Source of the DNA: an uncultured Puniceicoccaceae bacterium
Lineage (GTDB): Bacteria > Verrucomicrobiota > Verrucomicrobiia > Opitutales > Oceanipulchritudinaceae
Assembly (NCBI GenBank): GCA_963933835.1
Contig: CAWVVV010000001.1
Location: forward strand, 416,001 to 480,000
Direction: 5' to 3'
DNA length: 64,000 nucleotides
This document shows, one piece after another, positions 4,100 through 32,672 of this stretch. The notes under the pieces were generated by a model. The model was given only the letters and a program-made list of their open reading frames with translations, made no database searches and had not been told where the DNA came from. The translations under genes were made by a program, and so were the position numbers. Positions within the stretch are counted from its first letter, which is position 1; every line of letters begins with the position of its first letter.

Positions 4100-4131
4100 A
4101 AAAAAAAACGCTCAGACCGAAGTCTGAGCGT
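4100..4131 (-). terminator. Intrinsic terminator after rplS
   Basis: ACGCTCAGAC-cgaa-GTCTGAGCGT hairpin with adjacent A-run (U-tract on the minus strand). Confidence 0.85.
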
Positions 4132-9143: not shown

Positions 9144-9545
9144 CTAGTCTTGACCCGATTCATCGTCATCAACGGCGTCCGGGACAGGCACCGCATCGAC
9201 CTCTGTCACCACAACGGGTTTCCGCTCGTATCGAACGACTTCGCGAAAGTTGCCTTTCAGCCGATCGCGTAGCTTTTCCTTGAGTGCATCTGGAATACGG
9301 GCGACGGCGTCTTCAAGCGTCAGGGTAGCGACCAGCGCTGGATTCACACGCTTGGCAGGAGATTTCTCAGCTGGCGGCTCTGGATCGACCGTGTCCGGGA
9401 GGTCTTTTTGGTCAGCAAGCGATGCCTCCCATTGCGCTTCAGGTTCACTGAAAGTGGGTCGAGATCCGGCAGCAACGAGTGCGCTACCTTCAAGTTCTGG
9501 AATGATCGGCTGTCCCCCACTGCGCTTAAGCGGCGGGATCAGTCG
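9144..9545 (-). CDS. dnaX: -1 frame C-terminal extension of DnaX (putative tau-specific part)
   Basis: Frame is open from the A9 run ([11 protein letters not shown]...[23 protein letters not shown]...) to the stop at 9144, with no ATG in it. Confidence 0.7.
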
Positions 9546-10681
9546 TTTTTTTTTCCAACTTCAGGCAATTGCCCGGCGAGGTCAGAAATCTCTTTGATCA
9601 GGCTGTCGATGGCCCGAGCTCGGCCGGCTTCCACTCCACGTAAGAGGGCGACTTCAAAATTCACTTTTTGCGAGAGCCCACGCTGCACGGCTTCTTCCGA
9701 GGCATGGAGGGTGTCGAGCATCCGCATGAGTGACTCGACAGACAGGCCGTCGCCAAAGCGGGCGCTCTTCCCACCGTTGCGAATCGCATCGAGAAGGATT
9801 TCCCGGAGGAGTGCCTGTAGGTCTAGAAGGATACGGTAAAGATCGAGGCCTCCCTCAGCCAGCCGCTCAACCATCGCCACGATTTCAGCGTAGTCTGCGT
9901 CGACAAGAGCCTTGGCGAGCGCCTCGACATCATCCGCTGAGGCCAAGCCATAGACGTTCAGAACATCATCAACGCCGATGCTTTCGCCACAGAAGGAAAT
10001 CATCTGGTCCAAAATACTCTGTGCATCGCGCATCCCGCCATTAGCGAGGCGGGCGATGGAAAGGAGCGCGGGCGGTGCCACTGTGATCTTCTCGGCATCG
10101 GAGATCTGGGAGAGGCGATCCACAATCACTTCGTCCGATATGGGGCGAAACTCGAAGCGCTGACAGCGCGAGGTGATCGTCGGTAAGACTTTGTGCGATT
10201 CAGTCGTCGCGAAAATAAACTTCACGTGGGCCGGTGGCTCTTCGAGCGTCTTGAGCAGCGCATTGAAGGCCTGCGCTGAGAGCATATGCACCTCATCAAT
10301 GATGTAGATCTTGTAGGTGCACTGAGCCGGAGCGTATTGGCAGTCTTCGCGCAGATCTCGCACCTGATCGACCGAGTTGTTCGATGCGCCATCGATCTCG
10401 ATCACATCCATGCAGTGGCCCGACATGATCGATTGACTGATTTCGCTCTCAGGATCCGGCGCGACCGATGCCCCACCTTCAGCATTCAGGGCCTTGGCGA
10501 GGATGCGGGCGGTCGAGGTTTTGCCCGTGCCGCGGGGGCCGACAAAGAGGTAAGCATGCGCAATGCGACCCGTCGTGATCGCATTCTTCAGGGTACGGAC
10601 GATATGGTCTTGACCGACCAATTCGTCAAACGTCTGCGGACGCCAGCGCCGCGCAATAACTTGATACCCCCCTTGAGACAT
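9539..10681 (-). CDS. dnaX: DNA polymerase III gamma/tau subunit (domains I-III, 380 aa in frame 0)
   Basis: [57 protein letters not shown]. Confidence 0.97.
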
Positions 10682-10702
10682 ACGTGAGAAAATTAAAAAA
10701 AT

Positions 10703-10798
10703 GGCCAGGCACCCTACGGCACACGAGATTCCAAATTACCGTTGCTGCCTTCCGGCCCTGGCGGGATTCACAGGCCTCTCGTTGCATAGGACCCGACC
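10703..10798 (-). ncRNA. ffs: Bacterial small SRP RNA (4.5S)
   Basis: Minus strand reads GGTCGGG...GTGAATCCCGCCAGGGCCGGAAGGCAGCAACGG...CCTGGCC, with the helix-8 CAGG-CCGGAAGG-AGCA motif and paired ends. Confidence 0.93.
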
Positions 10799-28859: not shown

Positions 28860-31800
28860 ATGTCCGCTGCTGAAGAGCTCCCTTTTGTCCACCTTCACTG
28901 CCACACCGATTACTCCCTTCTCGATGGCTGTGCCAAGATCGATCGCTACATGCAGCGCTGCAAAGAGTTGAACATGCCCGCCCTTGCGATGACCGATCAC
29001 GGCAACCTCTTTGGCGCGATTAATTTCTACCGGGCGTGCGAGAAGGCCGGCATTAAGCCCCTCGTCGGGTGCGAAATCTACCTTGTCTACGATCACGAAC
29101 AGTCCGAGCGCCCAAAACGTGACCGCAAGCGCTCAGATGACATCGACGACGTTCCAGAAGACGAACTCGGTCCGGAGAACTACCCAAAGCACCAGATCCA
29201 CCACAAAACGATCATCGCTAAGGATTTCCGCGGCTACCAGAACCTCGTAAAACTGATCTCCGACGCCCACATCAACGGCATGTACTACCGCCCGCGCACC
29301 GACATGGCGCGCCTCGCTGAACATGCCGAAGGACTCATCGGGCTCAGCGGCTGCATCAACGGCGTCGCCTCTCAAAAACTGATCTACAACGACTTCGAGG
29401 GCGCGCGAAAAGCCACCGCGACATTCATCGATATCTTCGGCAAAGAGAATTACTTCATCGAATTGCAAAACCACGGCATGGCCGTGCAGCAACGCATCCT
29501 GCCCGGCCTTAAAAAGCTCTCTAAGGAATTTGGCCTCTCAATGGTAGCGGCGAACGACGTGCACTACGTCTATCGAGACGACTGGCAGCCACACGACTCC
29601 CTTCTGTGTATCCAGACCGGCAAACTCGTGAAGGATGAACAGCGCATGCGCTACCCGAACCGCGAGTTCTACCTTAAAAGCCATGATGAGATGTCGCGTA
29701 TTTTCTCCGAGTTCGACGGTGCGATCCAAAACACCGTTAAGCTCGCTGAGATGGTCGACCTCAAAATCAACTTCGGCGACGACCACTATCCGATCTATGA
29801 GAAGCCGATCGAAGTCGCTGTGCCGGATGATTCGAGCGGGTTTGATACGATCCTAGAAGTCTATGTGCGAGAGAAAAACAAAGTTCTAGCACGCGAAGAC
29901 AAGGAGCTCATCAGCATCAGCCCCGAACAAAGGGCAGAACACAAGAAGAACGGGCTCTACCTTTTTGACCTCTGTAAACGCGGGCTGAAAGAACGCTACG
30001 GCATCGACTATGATACCATTCGTAGTGAGTTTCCAACACACCTGCGTCCCGAGACCCCCGGCGCTGGCGAATTCGATCCCGAGAGCGAAGTCTACGCCCG
30101 AGAGATTTGCGACAAGCTCGACTACGAGCTCGCGATCATCGTCGGCGCAGGCTTTGTCGACTACTTCCTTATCACATGGGACTTTATCGACTGGGCCCGA
30201 AAGCAAGGCATCCCCGTCGGGCCTGGGCGGGGTTCTGGAGCAGGATCGATCATCTCCTATGCGATGAAGATCACTGATATCGATCCGCTCCAATTCGGAC
30301 TTCTTTTCGAACGTATGCTCAGCCTTGAGCGCGTCAGCCCACCGGACTTCGACGTCGATTTCTGCATGCGCCGACGTGACGACGTGGTAAACTACGTGCG
30401 CGATAAATATGGTGAAGACCGTGTCGCCAACATCATCACCTACGGTAAGTTTGGAGCGAAGATGATCGTGCGCGACCTCGCTCGCGTCCTCGACATACCT
30501 TACGCTGAGGCCAACCGGGTGGCAAAGATGGTGCCAGACGATCTCAACATCTCGCTCGAAGCAGCGGTTGAGAAATCAGGAGAACTCGCGGCCGAAATCA
30601 ACACCAGTCCAACCGTAGCAGAAATCTTCCGACAAGGAAAAGTCATCGAAGGCATGGTGCGCAACACCGGCAAACACGCCTGTGGCATCATCATCGGGGA
30701 TCAGCCGCTGACGAATCTCGTCCCCCTCACGCTTCAAGAAGGCGACCTGACGACCCAGTATGCCAAAGGTCCTGTAGAGGATCTTGGGATGCTCAAGTGT
30801 GACTTCCTCGGACTCAAAACCCTCACTGTCCTCAATGATGCGAAGAACCACATTCGCCGCACCACAGAGCTGACAGACTTCAACTCGGAGACAGTCCCTC
30901 TCGGCGACGAAAAGACCTTTGCGCTGCTCAACAGTGGTCACACGACAGGCGTCTTCCAGCTGGAATCAGGCGGCATGCAGGCACTCTGTCGCCAGCTTGG
31001 GATCAGCAGCTTTGAAGAGATCATCGCCCTCGTCGCCCTTTACCGCCCGGGGCCGATGCAGTTCATTTCGCAGTATATTGAAGGGAAGCGAGACCGCTCA
31101 AAAATCCAAGTCCCCCACCCCCTTCTAAAGGAGCTCGTCGAAGAGACCCATGGTATCCTCGTGTATCAAGAGCAGGTCATGAAAGTGGCCCAGATCATTG
31201 CGGGCTACACCCTTGGTGAAGCGGATATTCTCCGCCGTGCGATGGGCAAGAAGATCAAGTCGATGATGGACGAGCAGAAGGACATCTTCGTCAAAGGGGC
31301 TGAACGGACAAACAATATCCCACGCAGACAAGCTGAAACAATTTTCGGCATGCTGGAAAAGTTTGCCCAATACGGCTTTAATAAATCTCACTCTGCCGCC
31401 TACGCGATGCTCAGCTATCGCACCGCGTATTTGAAAGCCAACCACCCGGTGCAGTTCATGGCTGCTGTCCTCGGTTGCGAACTTGGCAACAGCGACAAAC
31501 TCTCCCACACCCTCGAAGAGTGTCAGTCGATGGGCGTGCCCGTCCTCGGCCCCGACGTGAATGAGTCACGGGAGAACTTTGCTCCGATCGTCGAAGCGGA
31601 CGGCTCAGGCTCGATTCGTTTCGGACTGGCCGCAATCAAGGGAGTGGGCGAAGGCCCAGCACACGCTATTCTTGTCGAGCGCGAGGCGAACGGCCCATTC
31701 GAAAGCTTCCAAGACTTTGCTTCCCGAGTGGAGGGCAAGACTGCAAATAGACGCGTAATGGAAACCCTCGTACGCACGGGTGCCTTCGACAACTTAGGCG

Positions 31801-32672
31801 AGGAGCGAGGCGATCTTATGCAGCACCTTGACGCCATCCTTCGCGAAGTCGCTGACCTCCAGAAAGACAAAGAAAGCGGTCAGGCCAACATGTTCGACAT
31901 CTTCAGTCTCGGACCAGATGAAGGCCTCGGCAAAGAGAATGACCGCACCCAGTTCAATGCCCCTAAGACCCCCGCGATGCCCATGAGCGAGAAGCTACAG
32001 GCGGAGAAAGAACTGCTCGGTTTCTACGTCAGCGGTCACCCCATGGACGCCTTCAAGGGACTCAGCGATAAACTCGACACCTTCCAAGGCGAAGACTTCC
32101 GCAAAATGGAGAACCGCGAAGCCTTCCGTCTCTGTGCTGTCATTACTGGAGTTTCGAAGAAGATTTCCCGACGCGACAACAGGGCATGGGCGATTCTGAC
32201 GGTCGCCAATCGGACCATGTCTTACGAAGTTTGCGTTTACTCCGAGAGCTTCGAAACCTGTGGAGATCACCTTGAGATCGGACGCTGCATCATGCTCGAA
32301 GGCTACATTCAACGCCGTCAAGACGACGAAGTGACGCTCGCAGCGACGAAGGTAGCAGACCTCGTGGCATCACTTCCCTCGGTCATGAAAGAATTGACCT
32401 TCGTCATATCGCCCAATGGCGACTCAGAAGATTTTATCGATACGCTTAGAGACAGACTATTGCCTGCCCAGGGACCGCTGAAGGTAACCCTCGGTTTCCT
32501 CGTCGATTCTGACCATGTCGTCGTAGCCGACCTCGCAACTTCACTCAACTGGTCCATGCCAATGGGAGACTTTCGTGAGCTGGCGGCTCATCCCGCCGTT
32601 GAAGATATCCTTCTTGTTGCAAGCGAACCTGAAATTCCAGCGCCTCGCTGGGCAAAACGAAAAAGCAGTTAG
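28860..32672 (+). CDS. dnaE: DNA polymerase III alpha subunit
   Basis: PHP domain [50 protein letters not shown]. Confidence 0.98.

Follow-up and report, generated by a model that had tools for sequence, protein, structure and literature searches.

Recoding of the bacterial dnaX gene, through which a polymerase-tethering tau and a non-tethering gamma subunit of the clamp loader are obtained from one locus, has been described in several forms. In Escherichia coli, dnaX undergoes -1 ribosomal frameshifting on the heptamer A_AAA_AAG, assisted by an upstream Shine-Dalgarno (SD) sequence and a downstream stem-loop (PMC3711429, PMC5009743), and its shiftiness rests on a single Lys tRNA (PMC5009743). 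In Thermus thermophilus, transcriptional slippage takes place on a run of nine A (A9; Larsen et al. 2000; PMC1088944, PMC5009743). A reversed arrangement of two open reading frames (ORFs) was already published in 2013 by Antonov et al. (Nucleic Acids Research 41:6514, PMC3711429), whose text reports 17 such genes from 12 genera, nine of them with a run of ten A (A10), and proposes transcriptional realignment; the review of Atkins et al. 2016 (PMC5009743) restates this type and adds that, at an efficiency of about 50%, a change of one base swaps the roles of the two products. A reversed candidate with E. coli-like stimulators has been described in Chlorobium phaeobacteroides (PMC5009743), dnaX of Blochmannia vafer and Blochmannia floridanus carries a poly-A frameshift (BMC Genomics 2010, PMC3017870), and the longer product of mxiE in Shigella flexneri needs slippage (PMC1088944). 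Here, these systems are compared with the dnaX locus in a 64,000-nucleotide (nt) stretch of DNA (the window; positions 416,001 to 480,000 of contig CAWVVV010000001.1, assembly GCA_963933835.1) from an uncultured Puniceicoccaceae bacterium of the Opitutales. The original prediction, made from the letters of the window, had held that tau is the unshifted product in the known cases, which is not borne out by the reversed dnaX genes in the 2013 and 2016 texts (PMC3711429, PMC5009743). Among the listed matches of a literature search pairing dnaX with Verrucomicrobia or Opitutales, no paper on a dnaX recoding site in Opitutales was found.

On the minus strand, the window harbored a frame-0 dnaX ORF of 380 amino acids (aa) at 10681..9539, which is gamma-length and comprises domains I-III (ATPase, lid and collar), as revealed by the ORF list together with Pfam (DNA_pol3_delta2, 1.7e-42; DNAX_ATPase_lid; DNA_pol3_gamma3 at residues 237-352) and NCBIfam (dnaX_nterm, 6.9e-124). 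At the gamma/tau boundary this strand reads GGA AAA AAA AAC GAC TGA, with the A9 run that joins frame 0 to the tail frame at 9546-9554 and the frame-0 TGA at 9539-9541, two codons past the run and within CTG ATC, read as Leu-Ile in the tail frame (both on the minus strand). Past the collar, the -1 frame stays open for 135 codons plus a stop (9144..9551, minus strand), covering a short, Pro/Glu-rich and unconserved linker followed by a conserved tail, and an mRNA with one extra A is expected to yield a product of 512 aa; the +1 frame reads KKTTDPAA and then stops. Sequence, domain matches and translation agreed here with the original prediction, which had placed the frame-0 stop at 380 aa right after the collar, had the +1 frame closing within a few codons and the -1 frame open to 9144, and had given the long product about 512 aa. 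The earliest start codon of the -1 frame is GTG at 9347, corresponding to an ORF of 67 aa. Among the 12 A/T runs of at least nine in the 1.94-Mb genome, only the dnaX run lies well inside a long open frame: 393 codons are open ahead of it, versus at most 128 for the others.

The original prediction had also cautioned that a homopolymer sequencing error would look the same, and this caveat is answered by independent assemblies. Logan contigs from X3 and X4 (other samples) and from X1 (possibly the source) crossed the A9 run with 0 differences and 0 gaps, and the Logan contig of X6 does not span the run. A TARA metagenome contig, which may stem from the same population, was identical over 1805 nt including A9, and was the only match in a metagenome scan for closer relatives; all of these are contigs rather than raw reads, and minority run lengths are invisible in them. 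The split dnaX layout is genuine and not a sequencing error.

The tails of the split loci can be aligned with the C-terminal ends that unsplit relatives encode in frame, sharing the consensus LE.A...IP...R..L...LR..FREVR, and this motif is common to 29 unsplit relatives, in which it is fused to the core. A hidden Markov model (HMM) found the tail motif in the -1 frame, and the frame of the motif runs stop-free back to the run. The linker codons of 24 split loci contained 0 stops among 1889 in the tail frame versus 32 and 80 in the other two frames, a count that arises partly by construction, as the tail frame was chosen as the longest open one, with the HMM serving as the independent check. 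In several relatives, KKKxLIP stands right after the run in the tail frame, with the frame-0 TGA lying within CTG ATY. Alignment and co-folding placed the conserved motif of the window (containing L..EDAVARIP...L) at residues 17-50 of the last 75 (9222-9323, minus strand). The tail had no sequence match in Pfam, NCBIfam or PDB; a PDB profile search returned an unrelated RNA polymerase V subunit at a chance-level E of 0.18, and this candidate was rejected. Nor did Pfam or NCBIfam reveal a domain in the linker between run and motif that would correspond to the DnaB-helicase-binding domain IV of tau. On the strength of these alignments, the downstream frame encodes a true tau tail that is conserved, and its conservation and homology rule against the alternative raised in the original prediction, namely an unrelated protein expressed from GTG 9347.

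When the C-terminal 75 aa of the tail (30-row alignment) were co-folded with residues 1000-1270 of DnaE (18-row alignment), the ipSAE was 0.67 (0.67, 0.65 and 0.67 in the single runs), the best of three controls reaching 0.01; the mark used for this score, reached by 116 of 157 solved complexes and by 2 of 215 mismatched pairs, is a rough one here, since own alignments were used. The runs agreed in at least 68% of contacts, with a predicted local distance difference test (pLDDT) value of at least 59 for the partner, and the predicted interface pairs tail residues 17-50, i.e., the conserved motif, with DnaE residues of about 1182-1249 (chain residues 183-250; nt 32403-32606). The model supports a shifted-frame product that would act as a polymerase-binding tau, its tail docking on the C-terminal domain of DnaE.

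The conservation of this layout was surveyed across the Opitutales in two samples. The first comprised the 40 nearest genomes, with dnaX in all of them, and 38 loci from 38 genomes, including the window's own, were scored; three relatives with fragments or paralogues but no complete dnaX were left unscored. Frame 0 stops at 373-396 aa, just past the A-run, in 25 of the 38; of these, 22 have a -1-frame tail and 3 a +1-frame tail (L030, L114 and L115; the contig of L114 ends ahead of the motif). A further eight are uninterrupted with A9 or A10 at the same site, as in Thermus, and in these eight, stops lie 1-22 codons off in both other frames. The remaining five are uninterrupted and have no run, three of them coming from genomes of 0.8-1.3 Mb; in these three (L119, L120 and L121) the A-run and most of the linker are lost and a short tail motif is fused in frame, leaving a DnaX of 389-429 aa that would give one product. 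For the second sample, a domain-III alignment was used as a probe and retrieved 79 named Opitutales loci, 13 of which duplicated the first sample and 66 were new, the tail frame being set by an HMM of the tail motif and, in 11 unresolved cases, by eye. The new loci comprised 47 with a -1 split (A10 in 44 and A9 in 3), 2 with a +1 split, 13 in frame with A9 or A10, 3 in frame without a run of at least eight, and 1 unclear.

In the combined samples, 74 of 104 Opitutales loci were split, 69 toward the -1 frame and 5 toward the +1 frame (L030, L114, L115, L187 and L194), and 21 keep A9 or A10 with tau in frame. The run of A9 or A10 occurs at the same site in 94 of the 104 loci, that is, in 73 of the 74 split ones and in all 21 in-frame ones with a run. 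The -1 split with A10 was found in five Coraliomargarita metagenome-assembled genomes (MAGs) and in the isolate Thalassobacterium sedimentorum. A DnaX tree of 41 rows (quick IQ-TREE) revealed seven switches between split and in-frame layouts, at least two of them forced by well-supported branches, with 19 of the 38 inner branches of the tree being unresolved; the in-frame L013 and the +1-type L115 are sisters at 98%. Repeated switching of this sort is what an mRNA pool containing all three frames would lead one to expect. A comparison with relatives had been proposed originally for the A-run, the frame break and a downstream hairpin; the run (94/104) and the frame break (74/104) proved conserved, and the hairpin did not (median own-gene percentile of 0.44 over 28 loci).

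Among the matches listed from outside the Opitutales, eight other Verrucomicrobiota loci (L039-L042, L044, L046, L050 and the incomplete L045) showed no such split. In two Myxococcota MAGs among these matches (L055 and L059), frame 0 of dnaX stops at 399 and 409 aa with no homopolymer, the stop following a conserved GC-rich segment, and tau-like sequence continues in the +1 frame over 267 and 234 codons; going by their sequences, they are a different, apparently conserved two-frame dnaX. The matches listed also included uninterrupted dnaX genes with an in-frame A9-A11 at about residues 379-426 (L049, L065, L084, L085, L088, L090, L091, L093, L097 and L098), from Planctomycetota, Fibrobacteria (A11), Bacteroidota, Ignavibacteria, Leptospira and Desulfobacteraceae MAGs. 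Slip sites of the Thermus type could be widespread.

Taken with the tail conservation, the survey supports the central claim of the original prediction, that the default product is gamma-length and that a tau-length product needs a shift to the -1 frame at the A-run. The locus is a reversed two-frame dnaX whose tau is probably obtained via slippage of RNA polymerase, and we infer that the polymerase rather than the ribosome is what slips. Standard decoding of the templated mRNA gives a 380-aa gamma-type clamp-loader subunit. At the A9 run, which is T9 in the template, RNA polymerase would slip and generate a mixed mRNA population, in which messages with one extra A, or with two fewer, would bring the -1 frame into register, and ordinary translation of the slipped mRNA would yield the 512-aa tau, consisting of the ATPase/collar core, a flexible Pro/Glu linker and a C-terminal motif of about 35 residues predicted to bind the C-terminal domain of DnaE. 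The slippage frequency would set the tau:gamma ratio, with gamma as the default.

Slippage is favored because the run is held at 9-10 nt in 73 of the 74 split loci, longer than a heptamer needs, and because its phase varies relative to frame 0, lying at position 1 in 3, position 2 in 18 and position 3 in 7 of 28 loci. It is further favored because both shift directions occur, mixed direction among homologues being what Antonov et al. take as a criterion for transcriptional realignment (PMC3711429), and because, in the eight in-frame loci of the first sample that have a run, both alternative frames soon meet a stop, as they do in Thermus. The excess of -1 over +1 loci (69 to 5) is in keeping with slippage that for the most part inserts bases; on runs of nine, as many as 6 additional nt have been reported (PMC5009743), and in many genomes selection against runs becomes apparent at nine bases (PMC1088944). 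Moreover, no SD-like element (GGAG, GAGG or AGGA) was present at -22..-4 of the run in the window, and such an element was found in 8 of 24 split loci, which again favors slippage, as does the lack of conservation of the downstream structure. Finally, ARAGORN identified one tRNA-Lys(UUU) and one tRNA-Lys(CUU) among the 37 tRNAs of the genome (97% complete), and the presence of two Lys tRNAs, versus the single one in E. coli, points in the same direction.

A wider reading, which we put forward tentatively and consider a minority possibility, is that one A9/A10 slip site feeds all three frames comparably, the frame of tau being near-neutral and toggling, with some lineages converting to ribosomal frameshifting. 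Its basis is the switches on the tree, at least seven in number, and the 69, 5 and 21 loci of the -1, +1 and in-frame layouts. Candidates for conversion may be the window itself, which combines A9 with a strong hairpin at 7-nt spacing, and L010. If this reading is true, the Opitutales would capture a transition from the Thermus type to the E. coli type within one clade, with gamma as the default.

Several points weigh against polymerase slippage and its supporting evidence. As to the survey, kin are not independent, so the counts overstate the number of independent confirmations; seven divergent tails of the second sample were classed by eye; and the stop count of the linkers is, as said, partly built in. 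L037, an Opitutaceae MAG left out of the 104-locus tally, carries a TAG in frame 0 two codons ahead of its A10, about 100 nt past the domain-III match, which is unexplained by slippage at the run alone and may reflect an assembly error, a pseudogene or something else. As to the contact with DnaE, tau-alpha complexes have been solved, and the co-fold score may come partly from likeness to them, though the tail is without a PDB sequence match.

Other points support a route in which ribosomes slip back on A_AAA_AAC (or A_AAA_AAA) under stimulation by the stem-loop, as in E. coli with the products reversed. Both heptamers are in phase in GG A_AAA_AAA_AAC, and a stem-loop is predicted to start 7 nt past the AAC codon, at about 9510-9542 on the minus strand (minimum free energy, MFE, folds), as a possible local stimulator of -1 frameshifting. 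The downstream 40 nt fold at -14.9 kcal/mol, among the most stable 1.9% of the 40-nt windows of the same gene and at the classical 7-nt spacing, and the 96-nt context has a z of -1.84, with 5 of 200 shuffles as good. In addition, L010 (the same locus as L193), the only split locus with a short run, has A6 only; its A_AAA_AAC is in phase and is followed, 7 nt on, by a bulged 11-bp hairpin of -15.9 kcal/mol (top 1.4% of its own-gene windows). This looks like a ribosomal -1 cassette in place of the slippage run, suggesting that the Opitutales may also have the site in a ribosomal form, and the reversed candidate with E. coli-like stimulators in Chlorobium phaeobacteroides (PMC5009743) is a precedent on the same side. 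Ribosomal -1 frameshifting could contribute, or even dominate, in the genome of the window.

As the main route here, ribosomal frameshifting is nevertheless rather unlikely. The hairpin is not kept in the same-genus L002 (own-gene percentile of 0.37), the downstream structure of 28 loci has the median percentile given above with 3 of 28 at or below 0.05, and approximate dinucleotide shuffles gave a z of -0.82 for the 60 nt of the window and a mean of -0.31 over the 28 loci. The absence of an upstream SD-like element in the window, a run kept at 9-10 nt though 7 suffice, the five split loci that require the opposite shift direction and the two Lys tRNAs in the genome all argue against it, and in E. 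coli A_AAA_AAC and A_AAA_AAA are far less shift-prone than A_AAA_AAG (PMC5009743). The original prediction had listed the A_AAA_AAC heptamer, a hairpin about 7 nt downstream and an upstream palindrome, all of which are present in the sequence and in the MFE folds, the hairpin being real and locally strong; its emphasis on a ribosomal cassette did not hold up against the length and phase of the run, the two shift directions, the missing SD-like element and the unconserved downstream structure.

A truly split gene, with a gamma-length DnaX and a separate DnaE-binding protein of 67 aa from GTG 9347 and no recoding, would account for the fact that this ORF holds the whole conserved motif, and is very improbable on the following evidence. 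In every split locus, the tail frame is open through an unconserved linker all the way back to the run, as counted above and confirmed by the HMM; the conserved KKKxLIP stands right behind the run in that frame; in the 29 unsplit relatives, core and tail form one continuous product; and there is no SD-like sequence ahead of GTG 9347 and no promoter-like site on that strand within the gene. In the Pol III holoenzyme, tau tethers the polymerase to the clamp loader, and a free tail could not do so.

Phase variation at the DNA level, in which replication slippage would create a mix of A9 and A10 cells with tau coming from the latter, has a slimmer chance still: runs of 9-10 are prone to replication slippage and contigs hide minority variants, but the tau of dnaX is indispensable in the bacteria studied and hence required by each cell, 74 loci from many genera have an out-of-frame consensus that is fixed, and three or four assemblies of the population all have A9. 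A sequencing or assembly error hiding a true A10 and a single continuous dnaX deserves practically no credence, for although homopolymers are error-prone and the inspection was limited to contigs of a metagenome-derived assembly (10 contigs), the X3, X4 and TARA contigs have the same A9, an equal frame break occurs in the 74 related loci from many independent assemblies, including the isolate genome of Thalassobacterium sedimentorum (L208) and single-contig chromosomes, and the frame-0 stop directly follows the run in all split loci.

As for the surroundings of the site, the palindrome GGCAATTGCC noted originally lies upstream of the A9 run at 9564-9573 (minus strand), with no evidence of function, and in the window the 45 nt ahead of the run were no more stable when folded than shuffled sequences (z of +0.18). 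Unusually stable structure was detected in the 45 nt upstream of the run in L002, L004, L012, L013 and L022 (z of -2.2 to -3.4), and L002 has a 7-bp inverted repeat abutting the A-run; upstream hairpins are known to stimulate slippage in insertion sequence (IS) elements. The dnaE gene, encoding the alpha subunit of Pol III (1270 aa; ORF and PF07733, 2.2e-88), is located about 19 kb from dnaX at 28860..32672 on the plus strand. Directly upstream, the start of dnaX is adjoined by a bacterial small signal recognition particle (SRP) RNA (RF00169, 72.1 bits, E of 2.4e-15) at 10700-10798 (minus strand), followed by a T-run, an arrangement corresponding to the classical ffs-dnaX neighbourhood. A second A9 in the window, at 4100-4108 on the plus strand (C1:420100-420108), is probably intergenic, all six frames being open only briefly there. 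Elsewhere in the genome, a T10 at C2:396735-396744 (minus strand) was considered as a second two-frame site and dropped, as it gave no coherent gene reading.

In summary, the dnaX of the window is a real and conserved recoding site, with a layout of a kind already known. For annotation, this means that, unless its recoding site is taken into account, dnaX will appear in most Opitutales genomes as a pseudogene or as a shortened gene with an orphan ORF beside it; standard gene calling misses the essential tau subunit here. On the slippage reading, the Opitutales would be one more lineage in which the ratio of polymerase-tethering tau to non-tethering gamma is set by a homopolymer slip, with gamma as the default. 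According to the co-fold model, the C-terminal motif, which is short and had no annotation before, is the likely DnaE-binding element of the Opitutales tau.

Compared with the known systems, the locus shares with mxiE of Shigella flexneri the fusion of two ORFs by a one-base transcriptional insertion at a homopolymer, if slippage is accepted, whereas mxiE is an unrelated gene with a U-run in its mRNA and a regulatory transcription activator as its product (PMC1088944). In Blochmannia, too, a homopolymer marks the point where the tau-specific part goes out of frame, and rescue by transcriptional slippage was proposed; that break is downstream of the gamma site in the tau-only region of eroding endosymbionts, as a tolerated defect (PMC3017870), unlike the break here, which coincides exactly with the gamma/tau boundary and is conserved in an order of free-living bacteria. 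The E. coli system involves the same gene and the same boundary, with an in-phase A-rich heptamer and, in the window, a stem-loop about 7 nt downstream, but the window differs from it in the reversal of the products, in a heptamer ending in C or A rather than G, in having no SD-like element, in its two Lys tRNAs and in a hairpin that is not conserved in relatives (PMC3711429, PMC5009743).

With Thermus thermophilus, the locus shares a sense-strand A9 at the gamma/tau boundary whose length is conserved (A9 or A10 in 94 of 104) and, if slippage is accepted, the derivation of two products of one gene from mixed mRNAs, and the 21 in-frame Opitutales loci with a run have exactly its layout; the templated mRNA gives tau and the slipped one gamma in Thermus (PMC1088944, PMC5009743), and the window is reversed in this respect. 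The closest counterpart is the reversed type of Antonov et al. (PMC3711429). As in that type, the window has a gamma-length ORF with domains I-III that ends right after poly-A, a run within the range of 7-10 A at the ORF junction (A9 here and mostly A10 there), a second ORF in the -1 frame that is homologous to the in-frame tau of relatives, and a frame break and motif that are conserved among homologues (74 of 104). The main text of that paper names Chlorobi examples only, with the full genus list in a figure, and Coraliomargarita does not appear in the main text. The window departs from that set in its A9 instead of A10 and in its own strong downstream hairpin. Beyond that set, the Opitutales survey adds members of the +1 type and repeated switching of the layout within one order, and across the 104 loci the layout flips among the three frames while the run stays, which supports the view in the 2016 review that a change of one base can reverse the products (PMC5009743).

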